From an uncultured Candidatus Saccharibacteria bacterium (GTDB taxonomy: Bacteria > Patescibacteriota > Saccharimonadia > Saccharimonadales > Saccharimonadaceae), in assembly GCA_964585155.1 (NCBI GenBank), contig CAZPCQ010000001.1, positions 8,070 through 72,069 on the forward strand: a stretch of DNA of 64,000 nucleotides, given 5' to 3'. This document shows positions 1 through 64,000 of the stretch, one piece after another; the first letter of the stretch is position 1, and each line of letters starts with the position of its first letter. A model generated the notes under the pieces. That model searched no databases. It was not told where the DNA came from and saw only the letters and a list, made by a program, of their open reading frames with translations. The translations under genes and the position numbers were made by a program.

Positions 1-593
1 AATCCATCAACTTCGACCTTATGTCCGAGACCGAGCGTGAAGGTGTTGAGTATAGTTACCAGAATTTCCTCAACTCTCTCAACTTTACTATTCAGATTCT
101 TGTTCGCTCTCAACGTGTCGATATCGGCCCTTATATTGAGCGCCTTTCCAACATCCGCCGTAACAACGACAATATGCTTCTCGGCGTCTTGATGGATGAT
201 TACATTAACTTCATCGACATTCTTTCCCAAGAAGCCAACATTATGGACAAATCCTTCTTTATTGTCATTCCATATTACAGTTCCGCCGATGCCGAAGCCC
301 TTGTCCAGCAGACCAAAAACCTGTTCAAAACTTTTGGCAAAAAAGCCCCCAACGTCACTCGTATCAATCGTGACACTTATAATAAAGCCGTCGACGAGCT
401 CAACAACCGCGTCGAAACCGTCATTTCTGGTCTATTTAATATCGGTATTCATTCCGTCCGCCTCAAAACTCGCGAACTCGCCGAACTCTATTACAACTTC
501 AATAATCCCGACACTGCCGTTCGCGAGCCTTTAGTTGACTTTACTAAGTTAGCCACCACCTATGTACGCAAAGGAGAAAAAACCAATGAGTAA
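1..593 (+). CDS. 5'-truncated T4SS-associated protein (TraC/TrsD-like VirB4 partner)
   Basis: Frame is open from the window edge (..SINFDLMSETERE..LNSLNFTIQILVRSQ..). It overlaps the start of the VirB4-like gene. Confidence 0.6.
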   Translation, partial: SINFDLMSETEREGVEYSYQNFLNSLNFTIQILVRSQRVDIGPYIERLSNIRRNNDNMLLGVLMDDYINFIDILSQEANIMDKSFFIVIPYYSSADAEALVQQTKNLFKTFGKKAPNVTRINRDTYNKAVDELNNRVETVISGLFNIGIHSVRLKTRELAELYYNFNNPDTAVREPLVDFTKLATTYVRKGEKTNE

Positions 594-2415
594 AAAAGAC
601 AAGCAAAACCAACTCTCTGCCGCCGAAATCGCTATGCAGTCCCAAGCCGCCGAAGAAGCGGAAATCCAGCAAGCCTTCGAGCAGGGGATTACCACTCTCC
701 GCGACCTCATTTCTCCTAGTTCTATTGAAATCCACTCCGGCTATTTCCGCCTCGGCACTAAATATGGCCGCACTATTTACATTTACGGTTATCCTCGCAG
801 CCTCTACACCGGTTGGCTTTCTCCTCTTATTAATATTGACGAAGTTCTTGATGTCTCTATGTATATTTATCCTGTCGAAACCGCCGTCGTCATGAAAAAC
901 CTCCGCAAAAAAGTCACCCAGCTCGAGGCTAGTTACAATGTTAATGCTGAGCGTGGCAAAGTTCGTGACCCAGAGATTGAAGCCGCCATCACCGACGCCG
1001 AAGAACTTCGTGACAAACTCCAAGTCGGCGCCGAAAAGTTTTTCCGTTTTGGTCTTTACATCACTTTGTGGGCTGATTCACTCGATGAATTGAGTTTTGT
1101 TCAACACAAGATCGAAACCATGCTCGGCCAACAAATGGTCTTCAGTAAAGTCGCCAGCTCTCAACAAGAGCAGGGAATGAACAGTACTATGCCTCAATGT
1201 ACCGACCAGCTCCAAATCCGCCGCAATATGAACACCGGTGCTATTTCCACCAGTTTTCCTTTCACCTCCGCCGACCTCACCCAAGAAAAAGGCATTCTCT
1301 ACGGTGTCAATATGCATAATAACGGTCTCGTTATCTTCGACCGCTTCAGCCTAGAAAACGCCAACCTCGTCGTCTTCGCCAAATCTGGTGCTGGTAAATC
1401 TTTCGCTGTCAAACTCGAAGCCTTGCGTTCCATGATGATCGGCGCCGAGATTCTCATTATCGACCCAGAAAACGAATATCAAAGATTATGCGATGCCGTC
1501 GGTGGTAGTTACATCCGCCTATCACTCAACTCCGACGTCCGTATCAACCCATTCGACTTACCAAAAGTAATTGATAGTGAAGATGCTAATGACGCATTAC
1601 GTGCCAACTTAGTCACTCTGCACGGTCTTTTCCGTCTTATGCTCGGCGGCAACCAAATCGGCCCTAATGGTCAAATTGTCCCCGCCTTAAGCGCCAACGA
1701 AGAAGCCGATCTCGACCAAGCCCTCATTGATACCTACGCCCGTGCTGGCATTACTAGCGACCCCGCCACTCACCAAAACGTTCCGCCAACTATTATCAAT
1801 TTATACGATACTCTACTTCATATGGGTGGCTCCGGCCCTCAGCTCGCTCAGCGCCTACGCAAATACACCACCGGTACTTTTGCTGGCATTTTCTCTCAAC
1901 AGTCTAATATTGATATCAATAACCAAATGGTCGTTTTCAATATTCGCGATCTCGAAGATGAACTCCGCCCCGTGGCCATTTATATCGTCCTTTCCCACAT
2001 TTGGAACATCGTCCGCGCCGACCAGCGCCGCCGTCTCCTCATCGTTGATGAGGCTTGGCAACTTATGCAACACGACGATTCCGCCAACTTCCTCTTCAGC
2101 CTCGCCAAGCGCGCTCGTAAGTATTATCTCGGTCTCACTACTGTCACTCAAGATGTCGAAGACTTTATGAGCACCAAAATGGGCCGTGCCATTGTCGCCA
2201 ACTCTTCTATGCAGTTATTACTCAAACAATCCGCCTCTGCCGTCGATGTTTTATCTGATGTTTTCAAACTTACCAACGAGGAAAAGAAGCGTCTCGCCAA
2301 CTTCCCAGTCGGTCACGGTCTCTTCTTTGCCGGCGCCAACCACGTCCATATTCAGATTATCGCTTCCGAGACCGAAGAATCCCTCATCACTACTCGACCA
2401 GGAGATAAGCGTTAA
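586..2415 (+). CDS. virB4: VirB4/TraE-like T4SS ATPase
   Basis: Walker A AKSGAGKS, IIDPENEY, Walker B LLIVDEAW, RARKY..TQDVEDF. RBS AAGGAG at 571-576 favours the ATG at 586. Confidence 0.85.
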   Translation: MSKKDKQNQLSAAEIAMQSQAAEEAEIQQAFEQGITTLRDLISPSSIEIHSGYFRLGTKYGRTIYIYGYPRSLYTGWLSPLINIDEVLDVSMYIYPVETAVVMKNLRKKVTQLEASYNVNAERGKVRDPEIEAAITDAEELRDKLQVGAEKFFRFGLYITLWADSLDELSFVQHKIETMLGQQMVFSKVASSQQEQGMNSTMPQCTDQLQIRRNMNTGAISTSFPFTSADLTQEKGILYGVNMHNNGLVIFDRFSLENANLVVFAKSGAGKSFAVKLEALRSMMIGAEILIIDPENEYQRLCDAVGGSYIRLSLNSDVRINPFDLPKVIDSEDANDALRANLVTLHGLFRLMLGGNQIGPNGQIVPALSANEEADLDQALIDTYARAGITSDPATHQNVPPTIINLYDTLLHMGGSGPQLAQRLRKYTTGTFAGIFSQQSNIDINNQMVVFNIRDLEDELRPVAIYIVLSHIWNIVRADQRRRLLIVDEAWQLMQHDDSANFLFSLAKRARKYYLGLTTVTQDVEDFMSTKMGRAIVANSSMQLLLKQSASAVDVLSDVFKLTNEEKKRLANFPVGHGLFFAGANHVHIQIIASETEESLITTRPGDKR

Positions 2416-2417
2416 CT

Positions 2418-5400
2418 ATGGCTACCGATACCAGAAAATCCACCAATGAGCTACAAGGCGGCGATCAACCGCTTTATCAGCCATGGAATGATTTTTCCGG
2501 TAGACCTCAAACCAGTCAAAGCCAAGACGATGTTCAAGATAACGGTCCTACCACCAGTAAAGAGAATTACGACAACGACCCTGGTTTTTATCGCAACTCC
2601 CGCGCCAACTCCGCCGTCAACACCCTTCGTAATGCCGAGAATGGCGCCTTATCCAATCGGGAAGCCGAATCTTCCTTATACACCGGTCAAGGTCGCAACA
2701 CCAATGCCAAATCCAAAGCCAAAGGCGGCAAGAAAAAAATCGGCGCTCTTATCACCATTCTTTGTATTCTCGGCGGTGGCGCTGCCTTCCTTGGCTCCTC
2801 CAACACACTCCTGCTCGACGCCGTCAATACTCTATTTACTAATGCCACTGATTATCAATACAGCCAATTTTCTCAACGTATTCTCAAACTTGTCGGTTTT
2901 AATATGGATAGCGATGATATCGTTATTACCGAAAAAAGTTGGACTGGCGCCCTTAAGTACAAACATATGTCCTCCGAATTCGAACAAAACCTCGCCAACG
3001 CCGGCTTCACTTTCGAAGGTTCCGGCGGCAAAAAAACCATGACCTGGACTTATGACACTGGCGACGGCACCACCATAACCCGCTCCGGCATCACCGCCAG
3101 CGAATTCATCGACTTATATAACAACAATGTTGACTTTCGCGGCAAATACAGTCTTGCCGCCGACAACCGTGCTATGACCGCTTTCGACGCCAGCGCCAAT
3201 GGCTCCTATCGCCACATCGGCAACACTCGTAATACTTTTAATGATTTTGAAGATACTGGCAATAACGAAACCAATCTCAAGAACTATCAAGATACCGTTC
3301 GCCCCAAGTTTGATGGCGATAGTACTACTCTCCAAACCTCAGGCAAACAAGAAGTCACCGAATACGTTGATAAATTAGATGCCAATGGCAATCCAGTTAT
3401 CGAAAATGGTCAAGTTGTCAAAGAACCAGTTACCAAAGAAGTACGACAATCCGCCTCCGATTCCGCTACCACTTCTTCCTCCGTTGATGTTGATGGAGCC
3501 AGAAGTATGATTAATAAAGTCTCTGGTGCCGTCAGTGATACTGGCAACTTCTACTGTGCCGCCATGAAATTCGGCAATATGATTTCTATGGCCATTGCTG
3601 GTAACGAAATCTATCAATCCATCCAATTCTTTATGACCCTCACTGAACCCCTCAGTAAGACCAAAGCCGGCTTCGGCGACCAGGCGCCCGTTCATCAGGT
3701 CCTCAACTGGTTTAGTACCAAAGCCGACACCGAAGTTAGTAATTTCGGCACCTTCAAGATCTCTGGCCAAGGCAAGCAGACTATCGAAGCACTTAGTCAA
3801 TCTGGCTCACCACTCGAATCTAACGGTATGCGCAATATCCTCGCTAATGCCGCACCCAATACCAAAGAAGTTAGCTCTTTCTCCCTCGAACGCGTCGACA
3901 ACTCCATCACCGGCCAGCTATCCAGTCTCGCCACTAGTAGTGATACCGCTGGTAATTGCGCCCGCTTCAGTATTACCGATAGCATAGTCTCTATCGGTCT
4001 CACTATTGCAAGTGGCGGTCTCACCAAGATTTTTGCCAACGTCATCGGCAAAGCCCTCATCGGCACCGCCATATCTGTCGCCATCAGCACCTTCTTTTCC
4101 TTCTTAACACCCACTATTCAAAACGCTTTCTTCACCAACGCTTTTGACAATGCTAAAGGTCAACCTGGCGGGGAATTATTTGCTCGCGGCAGCGGCGCCA
4201 TCGGCTCTCAAAATGCCCGTCGCAACAGCGGTTACGGTACCGCTTCCAAAACTAAAGTTATGCAATACAATAAGACTACCAACGCCGTACTCGCCCTCGA
4301 CGCCGAAGTTGACCGCCAGCGTCGCAGTCCTTTCGACATTAGTAGTCCCAATACCTTCTTTGGCAGTATCGCTTATAGTCTATTACCCACTCTCACCTCC
4401 ACCAACCTCACCGGTATTTCTTCTATCCTTACCTCCACCATGTCTTCGCTTTCTACCCTTATTGGCGGCGTTCACGCTGATGGCGAAAACTCCTCCTATA
4501 TGACCACTTTCGGCGAATGCCCTGCCCTCGAATCTATCGGCGCTACCGGTGATATGTATTGCAACCCTATACCTGTTCCCGACACTTCTACCGCCGACAT
4601 CACCCCTGACGACCAAAAATATCAAGAAGTCCTTAAAGAAGCCCAAGAGTGCGACAGTGAGGGTAACTGCACTATCAAACCCGAATCCGATCTCGCCAAA
4701 TACATTACATATTACGACGGTCGCGACTCACCTCTCGGCGTCGTCGATCAAAACATCCTCGCCGCTACGCAGCCCAGCAGCGATACTGGCATTATAGGTA
4801 CCGTCCTCAACCAAATCCCTATCGTTGGTGATATTATCAACATAGTTGACTCCGGTGCCGATATTGTAAATCTCCCCTGGGCCACTGGCGCCATCGGCTC
4901 CCAAAACGGCGGCGATAGTATCGCCAACCTCCTCGCCGCTACCGACGAAGTCGACTATAAAAACTGGTGGAACGAAAAAGGTAAATATTACCAACGCTAC
5001 GTCGAAGATTCTCGTATTCTCAATATGATGGGCGCCTACGAAGCCACCAATTCCAAAGATCCCGTCCTCGCCTACAAAGAAGAATACGAGCAAAAGTATC
5101 TCGAAGAACACCCCGAAGCCAACACCTACATCGGCTACCTCTCCCGTGTTTCCGGCCTCACTATCGAAAATACCGAAACCACTCTCGCCTTCATTGGCTA
5201 TCTCAATTATATCGATCAATACGACCCCACCCTCCGCATCGCTATGGACGGCGACACTACCGAGATCAAAACCGCCACCCAAATCGCCGCCATAGCCGCC
5301 GAGGATTATCACGCCATTTATTTCGAAAATGATAATCTAGAAACTACTTTCACTGAGCCCATTATCGCCAACCACCACATCATTTACGCCGACGTTCGTA

Positions 5401-5423
5401 ACCGGAGTTATGCCATATGTTAA
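2418..5423 (+). CDS. Large (1001 aa) membrane-anchored T4SS-cluster protein, function unknown
   Basis: Long ORF 2 nt after virB4 with hydrophobic segments (LITILCILGGGAAFL; SIGLTIASGGL..ISTFFSFL). Confidence 0.65.
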   Translation: MATDTRKSTNELQGGDQPLYQPWNDFSGRPQTSQSQDDVQDNGPTTSKENYDNDPGFYRNSRANSAVNTLRNAENGALSNREAESSLYTGQGRNTNAKSKAKGGKKKIGALITILCILGGGAAFLGSSNTLLLDAVNTLFTNATDYQYSQFSQRILKLVGFNMDSDDIVITEKSWTGALKYKHMSSEFEQNLANAGFTFEGSGGKKTMTWTYDTGDGTTITRSGITASEFIDLYNNNVDFRGKYSLAADNRAMTAFDASANGSYRHIGNTRNTFNDFEDTGNNETNLKNYQDTVRPKFDGDSTTLQTSGKQEVTEYVDKLDANGNPVIENGQVVKEPVTKEVRQSASDSATTSSSVDVDGARSMINKVSGAVSDTGNFYCAAMKFGNMISMAIAGNEIYQSIQFFMTLTEPLSKTKAGFGDQAPVHQVLNWFSTKADTEVSNFGTFKISGQGKQTIEALSQSGSPLESNGMRNILANAAPNTKEVSSFSLERVDNSITGQLSSLATSSDTAGNCARFSITDSIVSIGLTIASGGLTKIFANVIGKALIGTAISVAISTFFSFLTPTIQNAFFTNAFDNAKGQPGGELFARGSGAIGSQNARRNSGYGTASKTKVMQYNKTTNAVLALDAEVDRQRRSPFDISSPNTFFGSIAYSLLPTLTSTNLTGISSILTSTMSSLSTLIGGVHADGENSSYMTTFGECPALESIGATGDMYCNPIPVPDTSTADITPDDQKYQEVLKEAQECDSEGNCTIKPESDLAKYITYYDGRDSPLGVVDQNILAATQPSSDTGIIGTVLNQIPIVGDIINIVDSGADIVNLPWATGAIGSQNGGDSIANLLAATDEVDYKNWWNEKGKYYQRYVEDSRILNMMGAYEATNSKDPVLAYKEEYEQKYLEEHPEANTYIGYLSRVSGLTIENTETTLAFIGYLNYIDQYDPTLRIAMDGDTTEIKTATQIAAIAAEDYHAIYFENDNLETTFTEPIIANHHIIYADVRNRSYAIC

Positions 5424-7210
5424 AACACAAACTACAACTTTTTTTCAAAACTTTCCTCTGTCTCCTCCTCGCTCTCCTCATCGCCTCCCCCGCCTCCGCC
5501 GCCGACAGTTCCTACATTCAGTCTGCCGCCCTCAACGGTAGTTACTGGTACGATCCCTCCGCTCTTAATAGTAGCTGTTTTAGTAGTGATATTTCTATCT
5601 CTGGTAGTACCGCCGCTCAAAAAATCTGGTCCGGCCTCATTACTTTTATGACTCCCGAGCAAGCCGCTGGCGTCATCGGTAATATGGCCAGCGAAGGCGG
5701 TTTCAATCCCGTTCGTCACGAGATCTCCAAAAAGAATGCTCTTTGGCCCGGTTTCGATATTATGAACGACGTCTCCGATTCATATGGTATTGGCCTCATT
5801 CAATGGTCATGGGGGCGTCGCACCAAACTTCTTCATTATATCCAAAGCAACGACTCTAGTCTCATCCAATATTTTATGAATCCCGACACCTACAGTACTT
5901 ACGGTTCTGGCGACAAAACTTCCGGTGATGTTTTCCTTGAAAAAGTAGGTGATGCCGTTTTTGACCGCCTCATCCAGCTTGAGCTCGAAGTTCTCAAAAA
6001 CGAATTAAATATCAGTTACTCCGATTTCTTCAATCAAACCACCGTTTATGATGCCGCCAAATATTTCCTTGAGCGCGTCGAAAGACCCGCCAACCCTACC
6101 ATCGAAGCCCACCCCGAACGCGCCACCGCCGCCCAAACTTTTTATGACCAACTAAACGGCGCTTCTCTCACCCCATCCGGCAGTAACGGTACTAATATTT
6201 CCGGCTCCAGCATCACTATTATTGGCGATTCCATCACCGCCCGTTCCAGCAGCAGTCTCAGTAATAAACTCCCCGGCGTCGAGATTAACGCTGAAGTCGG
6301 TCGCAGTTTCGCTACCGGTATCGACATTGCTAGATCCATGGAACTCCGTAACGTCGTCGTCTTCGCCCTTGGCACCAATAGTCGCAATGTTAGCAGTGAC
6401 CAAATCCAAGAAGTCATCGATCTCGTCGGTCCTTCTCGCTCACTCTACTTCCTCACCAACTACGGCGTCGGCTACGACTTTACCAATAACAACCGTCTCT
6501 TCAATGAAGCCGCCGCCAGAAATTCCAACGTTAATGTTATCGACTGGGCCAGCTCCGTCTCTAGTAGCCCCGATAAATACATCGCCGTCAACGAATCCAC
6601 CCCGGTCCACCCCACTGCCGACGGCATCACCCTCTTTACTGATTTAATCTCTAACGCTGTTACCTCCAAAAACCTCACCAGCGACGGCTGTACTGTCAGC
6701 GGCGATTTCCAATCCACTGTTCTCGCCTACGCCTGGCCTACTCCATCCGACCCCGTCTCCACCGTCAACCAGGCTACTCCTAAACCCGAATACGCCGCCG
6801 CCGTTGCTCGTCGCCGCGCTGCCAACAAATATATCGGTACCAACGGCATTGACTGTGGCTGTTTCGTTGCCGCCGTCTTGACTGATAGTGGTTTCGCTCC
6901 TGGCTACCGTGATAATGGTATGGGTGGGGAAGAGTGGGTTATCGCCAATGGCTGGACTCTCCTCAATCCCGACGAAAACACCCCCATTTCCGACACTAGT
7001 ATTCTTCAGCCTGGCGATGTCGCCTTCTCCAACGGCGCCCCGGGCAACGCCGGCCACACCTTCCTATATGTCGGTGATATTCCTGGCTTCGGATCAAAAA
7101 TCGCTTCCGCTTCCACTGGACCCACCTGGCGCGCGCCTATGGCAGGCACAGAAAGCCTTACCCAAAGTAATTTTGGCGGCTATCCAGTTCGCTGGTATCG
7201 TAAAGGTTAA
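5417..7210 (+). CDS. Secreted cell-wall hydrolase: phage-tail-lysozyme-like + SGNH + NlpC/P60-like domains
   Basis: Signal peptide; QAAGVIGNMASEGGFNP..GIGLIQWS; IIGDS..ALGTN..VHP; DCGCFV..LQPGDV..GHTFLYVG. Confidence 0.75.
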   Translation: MLKHKLQLFFKTFLCLLLALLIASPASAADSSYIQSAALNGSYWYDPSALNSSCFSSDISISGSTAAQKIWSGLITFMTPEQAAGVIGNMASEGGFNPVRHEISKKNALWPGFDIMNDVSDSYGIGLIQWSWGRRTKLLHYIQSNDSSLIQYFMNPDTYSTYGSGDKTSGDVFLEKVGDAVFDRLIQLELEVLKNELNISYSDFFNQTTVYDAAKYFLERVERPANPTIEAHPERATAAQTFYDQLNGASLTPSGSNGTNISGSSITIIGDSITARSSSSLSNKLPGVEINAEVGRSFATGIDIARSMELRNVVVFALGTNSRNVSSDQIQEVIDLVGPSRSLYFLTNYGVGYDFTNNNRLFNEAAARNSNVNVIDWASSVSSSPDKYIAVNESTPVHPTADGITLFTDLISNAVTSKNLTSDGCTVSGDFQSTVLAYAWPTPSDPVSTVNQATPKPEYAAAVARRRAANKYIGTNGIDCGCFVAAVLTDSGFAPGYRDNGMGGEEWVIANGWTLLNPDENTPISDTSILQPGDVAFSNGAPGNAGHTFLYVGDIPGFGSKIASASTGPTWRAPMAGTESLTQSNFGGYPVRWYRKG

Positions 7211-8158
7211 ATGAGTAAAACATTTATGCAACCATCCAATCAATTTAACAAACGCAACACTATTATCCTAATCGTTATATGTACAATTATTATACTCGGA
7301 CTGATTATCTTTGGTATCGTTCGTGCCATTATTCGCTCTCACCAAGTTGAAATCGGTATCTACTATGCCCCTTTCACCGCTCAAGTTAAATTAAACGACG
7401 AGACCATCAAAAATAACTCCACCATCTGGATCGACCCCGGAGAATATCATATTACCGTTTCACTTGACCATTTCACCACGCTTAATACCACTTCTACCGT
7501 CGATCAATCCACTACCAACCTCTATGGCTCTCTTTCTCCTAGCGACGAAGAAGGTCAGCGCATCATGGAGACTTATCGCGCTGATTATGATATTATTCAA
7601 TCCCTTAATAGCGCCGCCGCCATTGCCCTAGGCGAAGCTCAACGCGCTAAATGGCCCCTTATTTCCGCCCTCCCTATTAGCAACCCTCTCTTTTCCATCG
7701 GCTACAATATTTCCACTAATGACCGCCTCACCATCAATATCAACGCCGCCACTACTTATCTCGATGACGCCATCCACACTCTCAAATCCCATCTTACCAC
7801 CAATGATTCGCTCGCCAATTACAACATCGCTTTTAATGATTGGACCAATCCACTTACTGATCAATTCCGCAGCAACACTAGCCAAGACCCCATCGAATAT
7901 CTTATTCAAGGTTATCGTCACCTCAACCCGGATCTCAATCTAGTTATTCAGTCAGGGAACTATGCTAACAACGGCCAGTATTACTATACCACTATCACTA
8001 CCGGATTCGACGAACGTTACAGTATCGTCACTTACCGCGCCATCCTCAAAAAAGACGGTACTTCTTGGCAACCCACCTCTACTCCTCAGCCTATTGTCAC
8101 TACTTATAATACTCCGGAAGTCTCCACTGACATCCTCAATGCAGCCAACAACCTATAA
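7211..8158 (+). CDS. Membrane-anchored hypothetical protein (possible PEGA-like domain)
   Basis: N-terminal TM helix; abuts the previous stop codon; followed by a terminator. Confidence 0.65.
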   Translation: MSKTFMQPSNQFNKRNTIILIVICTIIILGLIIFGIVRAIIRSHQVEIGIYYAPFTAQVKLNDETIKNNSTIWIDPGEYHITVSLDHFTTLNTTSTVDQSTTNLYGSLSPSDEEGQRIMETYRADYDIIQSLNSAAAIALGEAQRAKWPLISALPISNPLFSIGYNISTNDRLTININAATTYLDDAIHTLKSHLTTNDSLANYNIAFNDWTNPLTDQFRSNTSQDPIEYLIQGYRHLNPDLNLVIQSGNYANNGQYYYTTITTGFDERYSIVTYRAILKKDGTSWQPTSTPQPIVTTYNTPEVSTDILNAANNL

Positions 8159-8179
8159 ACACTACTCGCTCCACTCCCC

Positions 8180-8205
8180 AAAATACCCTCTCAGAGGGTA
8201 TTTTT
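8180..8205 (+). terminator. Intrinsic terminator
   Basis: AAAATACCCTC-TCA-GAGGGTATTTTT. Confidence 0.8.
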
Positions 8206-8541
8206 AAGCCCTACAAGGCCCTTCTTTTTCCAACAAGGCATCCATCCTTTTCTTTTTTCATTAAAATTTATTTTCACATTTCAAAATTATTTTCAACAAA
8301 ACTCGCCCAACGCATTCATACCCACCTTTCACCAAACACCCACCTTCCTGGCCAAATTTAGCGCCTTTCCCACCATTTTATCCACCCATCACCACCCACA
8401 TTCTTCCACTCATTTTTCACTTATTTTCCGTTCGGTTTTCCTCTACCTCTGTTTTTCTTACCAAAACCGAACAACCCGAACACTTACCTCCAAACCCGAA
8501 CACATTTTATATCACTTTCTTCTAAATTATACAACCATCAC

Positions 8542-8757
8542 TTTTCCACATTACGTGGATAACTTTTCCGCTTTTTCACCATACCAAACCCGAACACAAA
8601 AAGTCCACTTTATTACTAACATAATTAGTTTCACCTCAGTTTTCCACTTATCCACTTTTATCTGTGGAAAACTCCCACTCCACCCACCGCTCCGACGGGG
8701 ATTTTTCTTATAAAAATCGGTGGTAAGTTTTCCACTTTTCCACCTACTTTTCCACAT
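8542..8757. promoter_or_regulatory. DnaA-box cluster downstream of recF
   Basis: TTTTCCACA (8542, 8749), CGTGGATAA (8554), TTATCCACT (8648), TGTGGAAAA (8663), TTTTCCACY (8640, 8729, 8737). Confidence 0.7.
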
Positions 8758-8776
8758 TATTCAAAAACTAATGACG

Positions 8777-9781
8777 TTATTCTACACTTAGTCCACCACT
8801 CCCCACACTTGTCAGCACAATCTGATTATCCCTAAAATTCTTCACTAGACACTTCTGCCTCATCTCATCCAGTTCCGAGAATACATCATCCAGTAATACT
8901 AGCGGTCTCTTCTCTAGTACCTCCAGTATCAACTCCGCCTCAATAAATTTTAACGCCAGAATGCTCGACCTCACCTCACCTCTACTCGCCGAGCCATCCG
9001 CTTTTCGTCCATTAAACACGAACTCATAGTTATCATGATGTACTCCAAAACTCGTATGTCCGAGCAGGGAATCACGCCCAAAATCCCGCTCCAGTCTCAA
9101 CAAGAAATCACTCTCTTCTTCCACTTCACTCAAATATTCCAATTTCACCTCATCCTCATTTTCCGCAATCGACCGATACACCTCCGTAAATCTCCGGTTT
9201 ATCTTCTCCATTATTTTTCTTCGCTCTTGATTTAGCGCCACTCCATGTTTTACCAGTAAAATATTCCAAGAAAACAAATCCCCTGGCATTATCATTTCAT
9301 CTTTCAATAATTCATTCCGCTGCTTCAGCGCCTTATTGTATCGCGTCAAATTCACCGCGTAGTTTTCCGATAACTGCCCAAACATCCGATCAAAATACCC
9401 CCGTTTACTCGTCGGACTCGACCCCACTAAGTGCAAATCATCCGGCTCAAACAATACAATCGGATATTGCAACTTTTTCGGCAGCCTCCCCGCTTTTTTA
9501 TCTTCCACCAAAAATTCTTTCTTCACCCCGTCATACACCGCCACTACTTTTCTGCCATCCTTATATTCCAACTCCACCCGATAAAATTCCGCCCCCCTTC
9601 GCAAAATCTCTTTATCCGCCGCCCGGAAACTTTTCCCCCGCAATACCTCATAGATCGCCTCTAGGATCGAAGTTTTCCCACATCCATTTTGCCCCATAAT
9701 AGTCGTCGTCTGCCCGGCACAATCCAGCACAAAACTCTCATGACTCCGAAAATTCACCAACTTCACTCGTCTAATTACCAT
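8777..9781 (-). CDS. recF: DNA replication/repair protein RecF
   Basis: GQNGCGKTSILEA, SASRGEVR, LLDDVFSELD; lies downstream of dnaN. Confidence 0.93.
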   Translation of the reverse strand: MVIRRVKLVNFRSHESFVLDCAGQTTTIMGQNGCGKTSILEAIYEVLRGKSFRAADKEILRRGAEFYRVELEYKDGRKVVAVYDGVKKEFLVEDKKAGRLPKKLQYPIVLFEPDDLHLVGSSPTSKRGYFDRMFGQLSENYAVNLTRYNKALKQRNELLKDEMIMPGDLFSWNILLVKHGVALNQERRKIMEKINRRFTEVYRSIAENEDEVKLEYLSEVEEESDFLLRLERDFGRDSLLGHTSFGVHHDNYEFVFNGRKADGSASRGEVRSSILALKFIEAELILEVLEKRPLVLLDDVFSELDEMRQKCLVKNFRDNQIVLTSVGSGGLSVE

Positions 9782-9914
9782 CTTTTACCTCTAATCTTTC
9801 CCTGAAGAGAATGAATTTTGAGTTAATACGCGGAAAAAGTGAAGCACGCAAGCGAACCGTATTTGACATACGGAGAGCGCGTACTGGAACTTTTGACAAA
9901 GTAGTAACCAAAAT

Positions 9915-11021
9915 TCAACTCTTCAACGGCATTACTATATGAATGTAATTATTACACCCCACCCCCTGCACCACCACCGGATCCAACCTATTCGCAAACC
10001 GGAAAATCACTTCATCCTCTACCGTCGCATTCAGTGCATCTAGCAAAAACCTCGAGTTTAGTGTTACTTTTCCATCCACTTCTACTTTCGTCGCAATCTC
10101 TGAGCTATTCTCTCCTAATTCATTCGCCACTGCCGCAATCGCAAAAGTCCCATTTTCTACACTCGTGCTGCACACTACCGACCCACCTACTTCTCGCGCA
10201 AACAATGCCGCTAATTTTGTCACTCTGATCAACTCGCTTTTACCTAATTCCACTTTCACTTCCGATTCTTTCGGGATTAACTGTCGATAATCAGGGAACG
10301 AACCATCCACCAATTTTGAAGTTACCTCAATTCCATCTAAGCGGAACTTCACTTGCGTCTCGTCAAACAATATTTCCACTTCTTCCATTTCATCACTGAG
10401 CGACCGCATCACTTCCTGTAGCGACCCCGCCGGCACAATTGCCGACACTTCCGCCTCTACTTTATCCACCAGTTTACGCTCTGCCAGCCTATATCCATCC
10501 GTCGCCGCCACATACAGTCCACCTTCAAAAGTATTAAAATACACCCCAGTTAGCGCCGGTCGCGTCATATCACTACTCGCCGCCATCATCACTTGTCCCA
10601 GCCCCGCCTTAAATTCTTCCGCCGGCACCCGGAAACTCACCATTTTCTCTTCCTCTAATTCTGGCAATTCCGGAAAATCATCCGCCAACGCTCCATTAAT
10701 CATCGACCGACAAGCCCCCGCTTTCACTTCCACTTTCGTCCCATCCGCCGTAATTTCCACCATCTCACCCCTCGGTAGATTACTCACAAACTCCGCTATC
10801 AGTTTCGCCGGTACTGTCACTACTCCATTTTGACTATCCGTTACCGGTAACACACTCATTACTGCCATATCCAAATTTGTAGTGGTTAGACTTACTTTCT
10901 TATCTTCCACTCTTACTAATACATTGCTTAAAATCGGCAAAGTTGCCCGAGATCCCGCTGCTACTCGGCTCACATTACTTAAAGCCTTCGCCAACTTTTC
11001 CTGCAAAATCTTAATTTCCAT
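9915..11021 (-). CDS. dnaN: DNA polymerase III beta clamp
   Basis: LPILSNVL, RPALTG, AATDGYRLAE, GSFPDYRQLIP, IVMPL. Confidence 0.97.
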   Translation of the reverse strand: MEIKILQEKLAKALSNVSRVAAGSRATLPILSNVLVRVEDKKVSLTTTNLDMAVMSVLPVTDSQNGVVTVPAKLIAEFVSNLPRGEMVEITADGTKVEVKAGACRSMINGALADDFPELPELEEEKMVSFRVPAEEFKAGLGQVMMAASSDMTRPALTGVYFNTFEGGLYVAATDGYRLAERKLVDKVEAEVSAIVPAGSLQEVMRSLSDEMEEVEILFDETQVKFRLDGIEVTSKLVDGSFPDYRQLIPKESEVKVELGKSELIRVTKLAALFAREVGGSVVCSTSVENGTFAIAAVANELGENSSEIATKVEVDGKVTLNSRFLLDALNATVEDEVIFRFANRLDPVVVQGVGCNNYIHIVMPLKS

Positions 11022-11040
11022 ACTTCCTTTATCAGCCCTT

Positions 11041-11288
11041 CATTATAATTTATTTAATAATAGTAATAGTAAGTACTGTGGAAATTGTGGAAAACGCTCC
11101 CCCATATCTGTTTTCCTATGTGCAAATCGACCTGCAAAACTTTCCCACAGCCACGTGCAAAACTCCGACTTTTACCCACCAAAACCCCACTTTCCGACTT
11201 TTTCACAGCCCCCTTCCAACTTTCCCACAGTCTTTCCCACAAACTTTCCCACAAACTTATCCACATTTTTTCCACAGCCACCGCATTT
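11041..11288. promoter_or_regulatory. oriC: oriC: AT-rich DUE, DnaA-trios and DnaA boxes between dnaA and dnaN
   Basis: TAA TAA TAG TAA TAG TAA (11055-11072), then GTAC and TGTGGAAAT/TGTGGAAAA (11077, 11086). This matches the B. subtilis basal unwinding layout. Further boxes at 11221, 11233, 11245, 11257 (TTATCCACA) and 11268. Confidence 0.9.
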
Positions 11289-12662
11289 TTACCCATAAAT
11301 CTGCTCCCTCAGCTCGTTTACCTGATCCCTCAGACTGAAGTTCAATTTCAGGTCCTTTTCAATTTTCTTTACTCCGTGCATCACCGTTGTATGATCCTTC
11401 ACCCCTACCTCTAGCGCAATTTTCGGCGTACTCATCCCTAAATCTTTCGACAAAATATACATCGCCACCTGCCGTGCATTCTTAATATGCGCCACCCGAC
11501 TCTTTCCGCACATTTCTTTCGGTGTTAATTGATAAAACTTCGCCACTTTTTCTACCACCATCTTCGGTGACACCGTCTTCGCTCGTGTTGCATTAACCGA
11601 GTTCGCATACCCTTCCGTAATTACCTGATAAGGCGTCATATTCTTAAAATCTGCCACCGCCAAAATATGTGTCAACTCTCCTTCCAGTGCCCGAATATTT
11701 GTCTTCACATTATCCGCAATATATTCAATCGCTTCATCTTCAATTTCCGCTCCCCGGAACTCCGCCATCGATTTTAAAATCGCGCACCGGTCCTCAAACT
11801 GCGGCATCTGCAAATCATACTCACCCGCCTGTGATAGCCGCGACGCCAATCTCACATCTACCGACTTAATCTCATTCGGCAACCGATCCGATGTTACAAT
11901 AATCTGTTTGTCGTGTTGTGTTAGCTCGTTAAAAATATCAAAAAACTCCGCCTGTGACGCATCCTTATTCATGATCATCTGGAAATCATCAACAATCAAC
12001 ACATCTAATTTTTGGAATCTCTGCCGGAATTCCTCAATTTTTTTTGTCTGCAGCGCCTTAATGAAATCTGAATAAAAACTCGATATCGGCGTATAAAATA
12101 CTTTTAGTGACGGATCTCGCTTCAAGATCTCATTTCCGATCGCCTGCACTAGATGCGTCTTACCTAGTCCCGGTCCGCCATACAGGAAAAACGGGTTGTA
12201 TCTCGTCCCCGGCGCGTCAATTACATTTTGCGCCACGTTCACCGCTAGATCGTTATTTGTACCAATCACAAAATTATCTAGCGTATATCTTGGATTTAGC
12301 CCCGTTTGTACCGACCCGTTCACTAGTGGGGAAGAACGGTAATTTGAAGTCGCCACATTTGCTAATGACTGAATCGCATCCACTGGCGGTCTCGATATAT
12401 GATTTTTCGGTTTCGGCTTCTCTCGCGTCAAAATATCATATTTTATCTCTGTGACCGCTATGTCATTATGCGTCAGCGCCATCTTGATTACATCCGAGTA
12501 TTTCGACTGCAACTGTTTCCGCTTAAACACATTCGGCACCCCAATCACAATCAAATCATCTTCTATCGAAAGTAACTCTGCTCCAGTAAACCAAGTCGCA
12601 AACTGTTCCTTCGGAATCGTCTGTTCAATCTCAGCCATCACCTTCTTCCACACATCAAGCAT
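11289..12662 (-). CDS. dnaA: Chromosomal replication initiator DnaA
   Basis: YNPFFLYGGPGLGKTHL, DDFQ, RLASR, ARQVAMY, KDHTTVMHG. Confidence 0.98.
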   Translation of the reverse strand: MLDVWKKVMAEIEQTIPKEQFATWFTGAELLSIEDDLIVIGVPNVFKRKQLQSKYSDVIKMALTHNDIAVTEIKYDILTREKPKPKNHISRPPVDAIQSLANVATSNYRSSPLVNGSVQTGLNPRYTLDNFVIGTNNDLAVNVAQNVIDAPGTRYNPFFLYGGPGLGKTHLVQAIGNEILKRDPSLKVFYTPISSFYSDFIKALQTKKIEEFRQRFQKLDVLIVDDFQMIMNKDASQAEFFDIFNELTQHDKQIIVTSDRLPNEIKSVDVRLASRLSQAGEYDLQMPQFEDRCAILKSMAEFRGAEIEDEAIEYIADNVKTNIRALEGELTHILAVADFKNMTPYQVITEGYANSVNATRAKTVSPKMVVEKVAKFYQLTPKEMCGKSRVAHIKNARQVAMYILSKDLGMSTPKIALEVGVKDHTTVMHGVKKIEKDLKLNFSLRDQVNELREQIYG

Positions 12663-12679
12663 AGACCCCCGTCACCTCC

Positions 12680-12870
12680 TTCCTTAATAACTTCATTATA
12701 CCAAACCTTCTCCCATTTTTCCACAGTTTTTTCTCCAAAAACCCACATTTTCCAACTATGTTATAATATGTCCACTCCGTAACAGAGATAACTTTTCCAC
12801 AGCCAGCTCCAAATCTCTAGTTTAATATGTGGAAAACTTCTTGAAAAAAGTGGAAAACTGGTGTATACTA
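12680..12870. promoter_or_regulatory. Divergent dnaA/rpmH promoters with DnaA boxes
   Basis: Boxes at 12717, 12793, 12828, 12849. rpmH promoter TTGAAA(12841)-17-TATACT(12864). Minus-strand TGGTATAAT near 12686. Confidence 0.7.
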
Positions 12871-12925
12871 GAACAAGTAATTGCTATACATTAAAGCACA
12901 AGAGTAATAAATTGGAGAAAATACT

Positions 12926-13063
12926 ATGCCAAAGAGGACTTATCAGCCACACAAACGCCAACGCAAAGTCGAGCACGGCTTTATGAAGCGCAATAGCACC
13001 AAAAATGGTCAAAAAGTTCTGAAGCGCCGCCGTATTAAAGGTCGCGCCCGCTTAACCGCCTAA
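12926..13063 (+). CDS. rpmH: 50S ribosomal protein L34 (not in the ORF track)
   Basis: Translated by hand: [52 protein letters not shown]. Confidence 0.97.
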
Positions 13064-13185: not shown

Positions 13186-13545
13186 ATGTTATCCCAGCGT
13201 TATCGTTTTCATTCTCGGGGCGGCGTTAATTACACTTATCAAAAGGGTAAAACTATTCGCACGCCTCTGATTTCGCTAGTCTATAATCATAACTCTCGCG
13301 GCCGCCAACGCTTCGCTGTCGTCGTTTCCAAAAAAGTTCTTAAATCCGCCGTCGGTCGCAATACTATCCGCCGCCGCGTTTATGAGGCCATCCGCCTCGA
13401 ACTTCCGGGCTACCGCGAGCCGATGGATAATATTTTTGTCGTCTATAATCAATCCGTCCTCACGATGCCTTTTCTCGAACTTCGTCGCCTCATCAGGGGA
13501 CTAATGGACCGCAGCCTCACCGCTTATCATCCTCATCATAAATAA
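13186..13545 (+). CDS. rnpA: RNase P protein component
   Basis: RFAVVVSKKV.KSAVGRNTIRRR; synteny. Confidence 0.93.
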   Translation: MLSQRYRFHSRGGVNYTYQKGKTIRTPLISLVYNHNSRGRQRFAVVVSKKVLKSAVGRNTIRRRVYEAIRLELPGYREPMDNIFVVYNQSVLTMPFLELRRLIRGLMDRSLTAYHPHHK

Positions 13546-14117: not shown

Positions 14118-14212
14118 TCCGAGGCGACGAACCGCCCCTGAAGCGGGGCCTAAGACTTGGCCGAGCGGCCCGGAGCGGCCCCGCGGAAGGGGTGGGAGTG
14201 CAAGCCATCGGA
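14118..14212 (+). repeat. Structured repeat family A, short copy inside a larger nested inverted repeat
   Basis: GGCGACGAACCGCCCCT..CTAAGACTTGGCCGAGCGG..GCGGCCCCGCGGAAGGGGTGGGAGTGCAAGCC, flanked by a perfect 19-bp IR (14068-14086/14248-14266). Confidence 0.85.
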
Positions 14213-50252: not shown

Positions 50253-51737
50253 ATGCTAAAACTCAACACTAAATTAAAATACCCACTCTTCACAATAACT
50301 TTTGCGTTGGGTGGATTTTTCTTATTTCAATACCTAACTTTTATTCCCGAATACTCCAACGCCACAACTATAGAAACTCCCGTCTACGACGATTCCAAAG
50401 TCGACACGCGCACTCTTTCTGACATTACTTATATGCAAGAAATGACATCTGGAATATGTAAACGTTCTGTAAAAAATGAAAGTAAACAACTTATCGATGG
50501 CCGTGATGGAAAACACTATTGGGTAACAAAGCTCGTTGGTCCAGGCGGTGAAGAAAAAAATGGATGTTGGATGACGCAAAATTTGGATTTCGATTTGTGG
50601 AATGAGGAGACTAATGAACCAATAGTATTAAAAGTGGATAATTTAAATTTTATGGGCACAGATATAGAAAAGAATTGGGAGTCTACTTCTGGGAGATCTG
50701 TGCTATGGGCGGATTCGGGGAGCGAGACAGTTAAGTACTATGACCCGGGGTACTATTTGTATAAAGGCTTTTCTTTACGTCAGCCGGCGTCTCGCGATTT
50801 GGCATATGGCAAGGCATCGGAAAATTTGACCTTGACGGATGCTCATTACCTTCAAGGGAATTACTATTCATTCAACGCTGCTACGGCTGGCAAAGGGGCA
50901 AATTTTGGCCTTGTGGGTAAGGATGAAGATGTACGGAGTAGTATTTGTCCGAAAGGCTGGAGGCTACCTACGGCTCTTAGTGATGATGGGGTGTCATTCA
51001 ATTTTTTAAATACAGTAAGCACAACTAAGATATTTTCATCACCGTATTTCTTTATAAATAGCGGTTTTGTGAATGGAGGCTTGCTAGATGATGCCTTCGC
51101 TGGTAGATACTGGTCTTCTACGGCTTATGCTTATAGGGACGATGCTTATGATTGGGGTTTTGCTGATGGTGACGAGTGGCCAGCGCTTGGTATAATTTAC
51201 AGATATGAGGGAAAGACTATAAGATGCGTAGCGAGGGACGATACTGAAGATGTGGAGACTCCGGGCATTGATAATCCAAACACCTCCGTCACCGTCCCAA
51301 ACATAATAACACTAGACGTAAGTAATAATGTAAATATAGAAACAAATACTAATACAGTAAACGAAGGTAGTTTCACCGCTTCCGTCAGTTCTAATGCTCC
51401 ATATAGCATTAGTCTTAGTACCACGGATGGTGGCCACACCGACTTACGTAATGATAATACCAACTCCTCCATTCCCGCATTAAACCCTACTTCTAATATC
51501 ACAGAGAGTAGTAGTAAATGGTGGGGAATCAAATGTACTAACTCAGGCACTTCCACGGGTTGTACTAAAACAACCTATACTGGTCTTACTAATCACTTAA
51601 CTCCCACTCTTTTCTATACATCAACTCAAAGTACCTCTAACCAACTCACCCACTTCACCATCGGCATCCAAACCTCTCCCGACCTCCCAAGTGGCACTTA
51701 TTCCACCAGTATATTAGTTACTGCATCTCAGAATTAG
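50253..51737 (+). CDS. FISUMP domain surface protein 3 (FISUMP first, beta-sandwich domain last)
   Basis: NGCWMTQNL, GNYYSFNAA, ICPKGWRLP, GRYWSST, TIRCVAR; RBS AAGGAGG. Confidence 0.8.
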   Translation: MLKLNTKLKYPLFTITFALGGFFLFQYLTFIPEYSNATTIETPVYDDSKVDTRTLSDITYMQEMTSGICKRSVKNESKQLIDGRDGKHYWVTKLVGPGGEEKNGCWMTQNLDFDLWNEETNEPIVLKVDNLNFMGTDIEKNWESTSGRSVLWADSGSETVKYYDPGYYLYKGFSLRQPASRDLAYGKASENLTLTDAHYLQGNYYSFNAATAGKGANFGLVGKDEDVRSSICPKGWRLPTALSDDGVSFNFLNTVSTTKIFSSPYFFINSGFVNGGLLDDAFAGRYWSSTAYAYRDDAYDWGFADGDEWPALGIIYRYEGKTIRCVARDDTEDVETPGIDNPNTSVTVPNIITLDVSNNVNIETNTNTVNEGSFTASVSSNAPYSISLSTTDGGHTDLRNDNTNSSIPALNPTSNITESSSKWWGIKCTNSGTSTGCTKTTYTGLTNHLTPTLFYTSTQSTSNQLTHFTIGIQTSPDLPSGTYSTSILVTASQN

Positions 51738-51741
51738 TCTC

Positions 51742-51898
51742 GGCGCGACCCGGTGAACCTTTTCATTCAAGGTTATTTCTTTACTGGCTGAGCCGGGTCC
51801 GATTTGCGAGAGGAGAATAGTAGAACAGAATAACTATGCTCCGCAATGAGGAGAGGCTCACCGAACCTTGAATGGAAAGGTGAGCGCAAGGGTTGCGC
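51742..51898 (+). repeat. Structured repeat family B, copy 2
   Basis: Homologous to 42591-42746; starts 4 bp after the FISUMP-3 stop codon. Confidence 0.85.
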
Positions 51899-52554
51899 GT
51901 ATTGGCCTTTTGAACAAGGTAGCCGTGCCTTGGAAAAAATCAAACAAAAAAGAGCGCAGAAACCCTTGTATTTTTCAGATAAGTGTGTTAGAATGGGAGC
52001 ATAAAGAGAGTTGATTACCTTCGATTGATGTCGAGGGTAATCTTTAGTTTACGCACTAGTGGGCTTTTAGCCTTGTCTAGCTCGATTTCTAAAGAGGCTC
52101 TCTTCATACTCACCTCCTCACGCAAGGCCATTTTTATAAAAAATGGCGGTAGAGCGTATCTTCGGAAATAAAAATACAAGTATTTTTGTTTCACTCAGAT
52201 ACTACTACCTAAAATTGTTTATATTATCGAAAATTGTAGGAGACGAACCAATAAAAGTAACACTACTTATAGAAAGTAGTGCCTTAGCGGGAATTAAGTT
52301 ATTTTTATTGTGAGGCGACGCCCAATTTTCTGGCGCGTCAGCGACAGACCTGAAAAAGTTAATAATCTAAACTATACAAAACGTTTTCTACGCTCTCTAC
52401 ATCTATCCTATCAGAGAAATAGGCTTTTGCATAGGGTAAAATTCGGTCGAAGCCCGATTTCCCCAGAGGCAACCACAAAAAAGTCCCATTTTTGTGAAAA
52501 AAGTCTTAAAAAAGTCTTGATTTTCTAAAAATCTGCGGTATAATGTACATATGT

Positions 52555-61880: not shown

Positions 61881-62056
61881 CTCCACTTCTGGCATTAGCC
61901 CCACCTCTATTACTCCTCCAAGAACTACCATTAATCCCCCGGCTTCGGCTGGGGGATTTCTGTTTTTATCATAAAGTCGCTGACCTATTCTTGAGATATT
62001 TTCCATTCAAGGCCCATAAAATCATCAAAAATCCTCAAAATCTTCAAAAAAGTCCA

Positions 62057-62166: not shown

Positions 62167-62217
62167 TGAATTAGAATAATAAAAGATGAAGTTTAATAAT
62201 TTGACGTAGAAAATGAT

Positions 62218-62433
62218 TTTGAAGGCGACGAACCGCCCCTGGAGCGGGGCCTAAGACTTGGCCGAGCGGATTCCGAACTGCCGAGGATAGCGACTAGAAA
62301 GAAAAAGTCAGTACGTATCAATATATAACCAATGTAATACAAATGACTTTTTCTTTCTGGAGCGACGCAGGCAGCACGTGGCGTCAGCCACTGCAGCGGC
62401 CCCGCGGAAGGGGTGGGAGTGCAAGCCTTCAAA
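62218..62433 (+). repeat. Structured repeat family A, full copy in the dnaK leader
   Basis: TTTGAAGGC..GCCTTCAAA termini; homologous to 38661-38870. Confidence 0.9.
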
Positions 62434-62479
62434 GCCAATATGATTCATACGTTAGATTTTATTACAAAGGAGGACAAAT

Positions 62480-64000
62480 ATGTCAAAAATCATCGGTATC
62501 GACCTCGGCACGACCAACTCCGCTTTTGCGTATATGGTCGCCGGTAAGCCCGAAGTTATTACCAATAGCGAAGGCGACCGCACCACGCCGTCCGTCGTCG
62601 CTGTTACTAAGAAAGGCGACCGTCTCGTCGGCAAAGTCGCCCAGCGTCAACGCGTCACCAATCCGCGCAACACTATTTATGGTATCAAACGTTTGATTGG
62701 TCGCAAATTTGACGATAAAGAAGTCCAGCGCGACCTCGACATTATGCCTTACAAGATTGTTAAGAAAGGCAATGGTGTCGCCGTCGAGATGGATGGCAAG
62801 GAATATACTCCGGAGGAAATTTCCGCAATGATTCTCAGCAAAATCAAGGCTGACGCGGAAGCCTTCCTCGGTGAGAAAGTTACCGAAGCCATCATTACTG
62901 TCCCGGCTTACTTCAACGATTCTCAGCGCCAGGCTACCAAAGACGCCGGCAAGATCGCTGGCCTCGAAGTTCGCCGTATTATTAATGAGCCGACTGCTGC
63001 TGCCTTGGCTTATGGCCTCGAGAGCAAGAAGGACGAAAAAATCGCCGTCTTCGACCTCGGTGGTGGTACGTTCGATGTGAGTATCCTTGACATCGGCGAT
63101 GGCGTCTTTGAGGTGAAATCCACCAACGGCGATACTCACCTCGGTGGTGAAGATTTCGATAACGTCATTGTTAACTTCTTGCTTGACGAGTTCAAGAAAG
63201 AATCCGGTATCGACATTCGTGACGATGCTGCCGCTATGCAGCGTGTCAAGGATGAGGCCGAGAAAGCCAAGAAGGAACTTTCCTCGACCACTTCTGTTGA
63301 GATCAACTTACCTTTCTTGACTGCTGACGCCGATGGTCCAAAGCATTTCGAGTATACTTTGACTCGTGCCAAGATGGAAGAATTAGTTAAGCCACTTCTG
63401 AACCGCCTCGCCGATCCAGTCGAGAAGGCCCTGAAAGACGCCAAACTCACCGCCAAAGACATTGACGAGGTCGTAATGGTCGGTGGTATGACCCGTATGC
63501 CTGCTGTCGTCGAAGAAGTCAAGAAGATCTTCGGCAAAGACCCCATGCAGGGTGTCAACCCTGACGAAGTCGTCGCCGTCGGTGCGGCTATCGAAGGTGG
63601 TGTCTTGCAAGGTGATGTGAAAGATGTTCTCTTGCTTGACGTTACTCCGCTTTCCTTGGGTATCGAGACGATGGGTGGCGTTTCCACTAAGTTAATCGAG
63701 CGCAATACTACCATCCCTACCAGCAAATCCGAAGTCTTCTCCACCGCCGCTGACAATCAGCCGCAGGTCGAGATCCACGTTTTGCAGGGTGAGCGCGAAA
63801 TGGCCGCCGACAACAAATCTCTTGGTCGTTTCATCCTCGATGGTATCGCTCCCGCTCCTCGCGGCATCCCTCAGATCGAAGTTACTTTCAACATCGACGC
63901 CAACGGTATCTTGAACGTTACCGCCAAAGACAAGGGTACCGGCAAAGAGCAGAGTATCACCATTCAGAACTCTGGTAATATGAGCAAGGAAGATATCGAG
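62480..64000 (+). CDS. dnaK: Chaperone DnaK (3'-truncated by the window; not in the ORF track)
   Basis: [41 protein letters not shown]..; RBS AGGAGG. Confidence 0.98.

Follow-up and report, generated by a model that had tools for sequence, protein, structure and literature searches.

Gene organisation and predicted origin of the window

We analysed a 64,000-nucleotide stretch of DNA from an uncultured Candidatus Saccharibacteria bacterium (below, "the window", meaning the whole stretch at its full length), which carries a predicted chromosome origin, oriC, around dnaA. An earlier note, made from the sequence alone, had pointed to a textbook oriC and to its abnormal strand asymmetry. Both observations were borne out: recF-dnaN-dnaA lie on one side and rpmH-rnpA-yidC-jag on the other, clusters of DnaA-boxes are interspersed, and the GC skew does not reverse its sign at oriC. 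The genes and spacers of the locus are listed below in window coordinates; the last four genes are divergent from dnaA.

8777 to 9781, minus strand: recF-like gene (SMC_N/AAA ATPase in the recF position; Pfam SMC_N, 1.3e-14)
9915 to 11021, minus strand: dnaN (all three DNA_pol3_beta domains)
11022 to 11288, no strand: dnaA-dnaN spacer, an AT-rich stretch and then a run of TTTCCCACA/TTATCCACA boxes
11289 to 12662, minus strand: dnaA (Pfam Bac_DnaA, 4.8e-56, plus Bac_DnaA_C and DnaA_N)
12663 to 12925, no strand: dnaA-rpmH spacer with DnaA-boxes at 12717, 12793 and 12828; site of the skew jump described below
12926 to 13063, plus strand: rpmH (open reading frame translation)
13186 to 13545, plus strand: rnpA (open reading frame translation)
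14407 to 15522, plus strand: yidC (Pfam 60KD_IMP)
15526 to 15987, plus strand: jag/KhpB (Pfam R3H and KH)

The place of the recF-like gene after dnaN is kept across relatives. The closest relatives of the window DnaA are exclusively uncultured Saccharibacteria (TM7) from animal gut metagenomes, at identities of 84% or less, and include mouse-gut catalogue bins, ruminant bins and the Nanosyncoccus group; the best match among the GTDB Saccharibacteria representatives is 84% identical. Sequence words sampled from the oriC region were recovered in four public sequencing runs (X1-X4; 98% of the words present). In the same runs, contigs 95-99% identical to the window lie beside exact ones (at 9.4-15.9 kb and at 62-64 kb), so several strains of the window organism co-occur in these samples.

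The plus strand is rich in C on both sides of oriC

The plus strand of the window contains 18,257 C (28.5%) and 11,699 G (18.3%), giving a GC skew of -0.219, some 38 standard deviations from parity, with an AT skew of -0.029. Skew at third codon positions (GC3 skew, always given on the plus strand of the window) is -0.48. The excess of C over G extends over the whole 64 kb on both sides of oriC, as the earlier note had proposed from hand counts of 60-nucleotide lines; these counts were reproduced exactly, save that line 56161 holds 28 rather than 29 C. All 2-kb bins have negative skew apart from 50,001-52,000 (+0.03), and just two 1-kb bins are positive. The raw cumulative skew thus falls monotonically, from a maximum at 100 to a minimum at 63,900, with no change of sign and no extremum at oriC.

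1 to 64000, no strand: strand-wide bias, plus strand rich in C and, at silent sites, also in T (GC skew -0.219)
562 to 8158, plus strand: type IV secretion system (T4SS)-type block with a VirB4-like ATPase, a 1001-amino-acid protein, a lysozyme and a PEGA protein (Pfam P-loop_TraG and Phage_lysozyme2)
From 62,480, plus strand: dnaK

GC3 skew is negative in nearly all genes of either orientation, so the bias goes with the strand, whichever way a gene is transcribed. Plus-strand genes have C-ending codons and minus-strand genes G-ending codons, in agreement with what had been noted for LCP, galE and nusA (GC3 skew -0.48, -0.53 and -0.47, respectively); values are -0.71 for dnaA and -0.79 for dnaN. 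The T4SS genes, at -0.61 to -0.78, show the most extreme silent-site bias of the window. Intergenic DNA carries a C over G bias of the same sign as the third positions of plus- and minus-strand genes. Transcription or translational selection was considered as a cause and rejected, since codon endings are opposite in genes of opposite strands, and intergenic DNA is biased in the same way. The large G versus C disparity of one strand is not accounted for by the strand distribution of genes. The earlier note had regarded dnaK as roughly balanced, which holds for its all-site skew (near 0) and fails at third positions (97 G, 206 C; skew -0.36); with dnaK read in frame from 62,480, the bias runs on to the end of the window.

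Two genes escape the bias.

40520 to 42178, minus strand: low-GC3 gene (GC3 skew +0.18; weak Fib_succ_major match, below the Pfam cut-off)
50253 to 51737, plus strand: low-GC3 paralogue, holding the sole positive-skew kilobases of the window

Together with 16457-18265 (minus strand) they form a set of three paralogues with sub-threshold Fib_succ_major matches and a common 5' sequence. GC3 is low in these paralogues (0.34-0.41) and their strand bias is weak or reversed; they may be recent arrivals, or fast-turnover surface proteins that do not carry the bias yet.

The T4SS-type block sits just past recF, and its transcription is head-on to a leftward fork. A T4SS block adjoining the oriC region has been described for many Patescibacteria (PMC12102498).

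The skew jumps sharply at the dnaA-rpmH spacer

The view that there is no switch at oriC, put forward in the earlier note, is correct for the sign of the skew and incorrect for its magnitude. Across 8,986 third-position G/C sites the best single change point falls at 12,928 (support interval 11,889-12,937), in the dnaA-rpmH spacer, with a log-likelihood gain of 125-135 compared with a maximum of 9.2 across 200 shuffles. GC3 skew is -0.74 to the left of this point and -0.40 to the right, such that the strand leading away from the origin gains G, which is the classical polarity.

1 to 12662, no strand: left plateau, downstream of dnaA, with extreme bias (GC3 skew -0.74; intergenic -0.52)
12926 to 64000, no strand: right plateau, upstream of dnaA, of the same sign but weaker (GC3 skew -0.40)

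The same position emerged at the level of whole genes, where the best split is between dnaA and rpmH (|t|=8.0, Mann-Whitney p=4e-7) and none of 1,000 gene-order permutations reached it. Genes of either orientation show the jump, as does intergenic DNA (-0.52 left versus -0.20 right). Whereas the raw cumulative skew lacks an extremum, the mean-detrended curve for all sites bottoms out at 12,817, within the cluster of boxes between dnaA and rpmH. This is the only large upward jump in the window (z=+9.3), and no change point with a log-likelihood gain above 10 was found between 12.9 and 56.9 kb.

On the left plateau, four-fold degenerate sites of plus-strand genes hold 718 C, 418 T, 72 A and 24 G. 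The 51 kb of the right plateau are level (ln(G3/C3) changes with distance by 0.0038 per kb; p=0.48), and in the relative L162 the right-hand bias goes on for 10 kb beyond dnaK. In 27-34 related metagenome loci the left-side level persists to about 20 kb past dnaA, with bin medians of about -0.3 to -0.6. The skew profile has the form of a step, with a plateau on either side, and not of a local peak.

The jump is conserved among relatives while the offset varies

We compared the region of 10 kb on either side of dnaA in about 60 Saccharibacteria species representatives, together with 80 metagenome loci around the VirB4-like gene. An upward jump at dnaA is present in 54 of 55 loci (the window and 54 related Saccharibacteria), with a mean of +0.33 in GC3 skew and in both gene orientations. 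Where both flanks were complete (42 loci), the best maximum-likelihood change point lay within -1.0 to +4.5 kb of the dnaA start in 38, and the step was upward in 41.

The bias common to both sides of the jump (hereafter the offset) differs greatly between lineages. In most of them, the window included, the dnaA-sense strand is G-rich on both sides of dnaA; in Nanosyncoccus-like lineages (L043-L053, L058) it is C-rich on both sides. Three lineages whose DnaA is 73-78% identical to that of the window (L005, L007, L010) have an offset of about 0 and an ordinary sign flip, with the same jump. Measured at four-fold sites, the offset is continuous from -2.1 to +2.3 ln(G/C) units, the window lying at the extreme, and failure of the sign to reverse was found in about 50 species. 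Gene order (ricin-orf190-LCP-jag-yidC-rnpA-rpmH, then dnaA-dnaN-recF) is kept in the positive, zero and negative classes alike, in the roughly 20 species checked.

The size of the jump is independent of the offset. In 48 loci the four-fold-site ln(G/C) jump was 1.16 +/- 0.32 (range 0.6-2.1), and it correlated neither with the offset (r=0.18) nor with its absolute value (r=-0.02). The two also differ in base signature: the jump has no mean T/A component (-0.01) and concerns G versus C only, whereas the offset pairs G with A (ln(T/A) against ln(G/C), r=-0.89, slope -0.37). The offset therefore contrasts a purine-rich with a pyrimidine-rich strand, and jump and offset look like separate things. 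A parsimony substitution spectrum from four-fold sites of 16 related loci (80-94% identical) was not used as evidence, because these silent sites are saturated (about 1.8 changes per site) and the mutational spectrum is uninformative; forward and reverse changes balance, and the inferred "rates" just restate composition.

Two further observations were made in the relatives. The absolute offset correlates with G+C content at four-fold sites (Spearman 0.58, p=1.5e-5; loci L001-L061), and the process that makes the offset may also raise GC content. In the opposite-polarity relatives checked (L108, L113, L124, L132, L133) the VirB4-like gene does not adjoin dnaA.

DnaA-box clusters and candidate origin elements

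The window contains 53 DnaA-boxes (TTATCCACA, at most one mismatch), compared with 13.8 expected. They cluster at 8378-8756, 11086-11276 and 12717-12836, that is, in both spacers flanking dnaA and after recF.

8378 to 8756, no strand: third DnaA-box cluster, between recF and the T4SS block (7 boxes, at most one mismatch)
33687 to 33890, minus strand: DnaA-box-like array (7 boxes, at most one mismatch) in a low-complexity "V-E/D/Q-N" N-terminal extension of an ABC ATPase
45324 to 45613, plus strand: DnaA-box-like array (12 boxes, at most one mismatch) in an S/T/P/Q-rich linker of a GT4/GT1 glycosyltransferase
47599 to 47649, minus strand: DnaA-box-like array (3 boxes, at most one mismatch) inside a Wzy-like protein gene

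Direct reading of the dnaA-dnaN spacer reveals an AT-rich stretch of 39 nucleotides at about 11040-11078, and this spacer would form the second half of a bipartite oriC that includes the candidate unwinding stretch. The position of the jump depends on the clade (loci L001-L061): in the window it lies between dnaA and rpmH, lineages that flip normally have it between dnaA and dnaN, and in the clade with a negative offset it falls past recF, about 2.6-3.5 kb downstream from where dnaA starts. Because these three clade-specific positions coincide with the three DnaA-box clusters, we suspect that the unwinding site may have shifted among them.

The three arrays within open reading frames are each of a single orientation, with spacings of about 11, 21-22 and 43 nucleotides that are not multiples of 3. 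Judging by this arrangement, they may be DnaA-titrating sites encoded in coding linkers. The earlier note had raised the possibility that initiation occurs at such an array. This found no support, as there is no upward skew jump at 33.7, 45.4 or 47.6 kb (z=-2.0, -3.4 and +1.1, respectively, versus +9.3 at the dnaA-rpmH spacer).

A probable working origin beneath a proposed second strand-wide bias

Taken together, the results suggest that a working bidirectional oriC is combined with a second, strand-wide mutational bias, an interpretation to which we assign a probability of roughly 0.55. The locus would be a genuine DnaA-dependent oriC, with box clusters on both sides of dnaA, from which forks most likely leave in both directions and leave their mark as the sharp, classically polarised jump of G versus C at silent sites. 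On top of this a larger second bias would be added, tied to the physical strand rather than to fork or gene direction, making the plus strand pyrimidine-rich (C far above G, and T above A) on both sides of the origin; the sign would fail to reverse because the larger bias is superposed on the origin jump. The offset would circle the whole chromosome and would come from an additional one-directional process acting on one strand. That this process is a second, round-the-circle mode of DNA synthesis or of single-strand exposure, with a direction that depends on the clade, is a tentative proposal with the odds against it. Candidates would be unidirectional or rolling-circle synthesis round the circle, or single-strand handling linked to the oriC-adjacent T4SS. 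Slightly more doubtful still is the full generalisation that in this gut Saccharibacteria clade one strand of the whole chromosome repeatedly undergoes a one-directional process beside bidirectional replication, and that the direction and intensity of this process have switched more than once among sister species, spanning +2.3 to -2.1 ln units by way of 0, with no local rearrangement.

The pattern might instead arise from a single process if replication started at oriC mostly with only the leftward (dnaA-to-dnaN) fork, and with a rightward fork in about 25-30% of rounds (p). Skew would then be -S on the left and S(2p-1) on the right, which is negative when p<0.5, and the other fork would be dominant in the Nanosyncoccus-like clade. 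From unequal fork usage of this kind, same-sign plateaus separated by a jump at oriC follow directly, as do polarity reversal without rearrangement and a continuum of offsets; in the window itself, moreover, jump and offset have like ratios of G/C to T/A. There are also precedents, in that unidirectional replication has been put forward for strand disparity in Microgenomates (PMC7143001) and chromosomes with very unequal replichore skew are catalogued in SkewDB (PMC8941118). We nevertheless consider it unlikely. It needs S to vary about 3-fold among close relatives (0.23 in flip lineages, 0.75 here) and in exact inverse proportion to p, such that 2pS is held near 0.45 (0.43-0.48 in the lineages for which it was calculated, and down to about 0.23 where the offset is largest). 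A single process would give jump and offset the same base signature, and across the 48 loci these differ; an additive second process is the simpler account, because a single one requires both the shared signature and the co-variation of S and p. Rightward orientation prevails to the right of oriC, in 25 of 36 genes and 69% of coding bases (rpmH, rnpA, yidC, tRNA-Met and dnaK among them), so these would be head-on to a leftward fork rather than mostly co-oriented with replication, and there is no coverage step at oriC. A strictly unidirectional replicon would be expected to show uniform bias without a classical-polarity jump at its origin, and the jump is present. The suggestion in the earlier note that the whole window is replicated from right to left is disfavoured by the polarity of the jump, the independence of its size from the offset, its equal size in sisters that flip, the 69% of rightward coding bases and the even depth. 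A distinctly improbable variant is unidirectional strand-displacement or rolling-circle-like replication with a gradient of exposure time, as in vertebrate mitochondrial DNA, giving a sawtooth that breaks only at the origin. Such a sawtooth would have the same sign on both sides and a discontinuity exactly at oriC, as observed, its ramp of about 1 Mb would not show in 64 kb and would pass for a plateau on each side, and position-dependent and position-independent components could differ in spectrum. The sisters with an offset near 0 would however need a sawtooth centred on zero, which makes no mechanistic sense, and they look ordinarily bidirectional with the same jump; deamination of cytosines rules out the C-rich strand as the exposed one, and T is scarce on its G-rich counterpart; gene direction (69% rightward) and flat coverage count against it too.

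Explanations that place no active origin at dnaA, or that invoke damage to the locus, fare worse. Were the active origin elsewhere, either outside the window or at an in-gene DnaA-box array, the dnaA locus would be a fossil with decaying skew. The box-like arrays at 33.7, 45.4 and 47.6 kb and the uniform sign over 64 kb are what such an account could draw upon, but no array has an upward jump and there is no change point between 12.9 and 56.9 kb. A decaying fossil predicts jump sizes down to zero, whereas all 48 loci have jumps of 0.6-2.1 ln units, and the plateau here, at a magnitude of 0.74, is stronger than in relatives that flip normally (about 0.23); we regard this account as very improbable. 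A recent inversion, rearrangement or misassembly that set wrongly skewed DNA beside oriC is hardly credible; a recent rearrangement had also been suggested in the earlier note. Contigs of the public runs do break repeatedly between 9.4 and 15.9 kb, but they agree with the window, and they meet end to end or share about one word length. Synteny with relatives reveals no breakpoint, identical local gene order in all offset classes rules out rearrangement, and the pattern recurs in about 50 species and in independent assemblies from many studies.

Several points weigh against a second bias superposed on a bidirectional origin. No mechanism is known by which a single strand would become biased along its entire length in a bacterial chromosome that replicates in both directions. 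The readable span is 64 kb of the window genome and does not exceed about 31 kb in any relative, which limits the genome-wide claim as well as the prediction of a second jump at the terminus, and the relatives share ancestry and synteny, so that 54 of 55 does not amount to 54 independent trials. The jump of the window is itself larger than usual (2.1 ln units) and has a T/A component of -0.66; in this genome the process behind the offset thus seems to shift at oriC as well, a hint of a link with replication that keeps replication-linked explanations alive. Coverage speaks for bidirectional forks, though weakly. Contig depth across oriC was 95.4 on the left and 95.5 on the right in run X2, and right-to-left ratios in the four runs were 1.11, 1.00, 1.10 and 0.99, within contig-to-contig noise and with no step; depth was flat within about 10% over the 64-kb span. 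This is weak evidence that does not separate the models, because these are assembler word depths from a strain mixture, which would miss a small peak-to-trough ratio.

Implications

Reversal of GC skew is the standard for placing origins, checking assemblies and estimating growth from metagenomes. Skew-based tools would fail or mislead in this clade, though the origin is in its usual place. Silent-site ratios reach 30:1, and no textbook case has codon usage so strongly dictated by strand. Should the offset extend over the whole chromosome, these would be bacterial chromosomes that violate intra-strand base parity (Chargaff's second rule).

Looking forward, the existence of sisters with identical local gene order and either polarity or none means that a comparison of gene content (T4SS, repair, replication and termination genes) and of replication profiles could identify the cause. 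If a one-directional process on one strand does operate, these species are a natural experiment on the cause of strand bias. The system bears on the origin of strand asymmetry and offers a test of unconventional replication in the candidate phyla radiation, as proposed for Microgenomates.

Other features of the window

Two families of GC-rich intergenic repeats are present, at 14122-14209, 38653-38870 and 62212-62431 and also at 42582-42745 and 51733-51898, with copies 83-98% identical. Their word depth in the public runs is about 5 times that of the flanks, contigs break there, and they have no Rfam match; either a dispersed element or a small structured RNA is conceivable. Scans of the window for tRNAs and Rfam families returned nothing except tRNA-Met.

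A promoter-like sequence, TTGACA-N17-TGTGcTAcAAT (with an extended -10), recurs upstream of many genes and is conserved. Copies lie on the plus strand at 51959, 52822, 54346, 60128 and 61164, and on the reverse strand at 30399, 33628, 38535, 48974, 49870 and 57723. The copy running from 33671 to 33628 (minus strand) is antisense into the ABC-2 permease gene, beside the DnaA-box array.

Comparison with known systems

Very strong strand bias at silent sites has precedents. Borrelia burgdorferi has strand-specific codon usage, with a bias that reverses at the origin, and in vertebrate mitochondrial DNA strand asymmetry is tied to strand-displacement replication and separates G/T from A/C. As in both of these, the strand of a gene in the window sets its codon choice, and the bias is very strong at four-fold sites. 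Unlike in Borrelia, the bias does not reverse at the origin, and unlike in mitochondrial DNA it separates purines from pyrimidines.

Within the Saccharibacteria, the soil bacterium T. rhizospherense is reported to have a typical symmetric pattern, bidirectional with skew reversal (Starr et al. 2018, PMC6031116). It shares with the window the dnaA-dnaN/rpmH context, DnaA-box clusters and a classical-polarity discontinuity at the origin; what the window lacks is the reversal of sign. The typical pattern stated for Saccharibacteria in that study fails in this gut clade, though the three lineages with an offset of about 0 do flip.

Among bacteria more generally, SkewDB lists about 250 chromosomes with an at least 3-fold difference in absolute GC skew across the origin, which its author found hard to explain (Hubert 2022, PMC8941118). 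These have formally the same shape of offset plus step. In the window, unlike in those cases, the offset exceeds the step and one side has the "wrong" sign, with silent-site C:G of up to 30:1. The genomes listed as having "rolling circle" skew (Chen et al. 2020, Table S7) include none from the candidate phyla radiation, hence no Saccharibacteria.

The nearest parallel is found in closed genomes of Microgenomates (order UBA1400), where Ch65, a Collierbacteria and a Beckwithbacteria have monotonic cumulative GC skew and a roughly 2-fold G/C strand disparity, for which unidirectional replication was tentatively proposed (Kadnikov et al. 2020, PMC7143001). Like the window organism, they belong to the candidate phyla radiation and have small genomes in which one strand holds about 1.5-2 times more C than G (29.8% versus 15.0% in Ch65; 28.5% versus 18.3% in the window), with little A/T disparity, genes on both strands and no cumulative-skew extremum. 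For Microgenomates whole closed chromosomes were shown and no jump at oriC was reported, while the window covers 64 kb and comes from another class, Saccharibacteria; its clade differs in having a clear oriC jump, a purine/pyrimidine signature at silent sites, and sisters of opposite or no polarity. The kind of disparity is thus already known, and the present work places it in a new lineage with three additions: a jump at the origin remains beneath the offset, the offset bears a base signature of its own, and its polarity and size vary among sister species with unchanged synteny.

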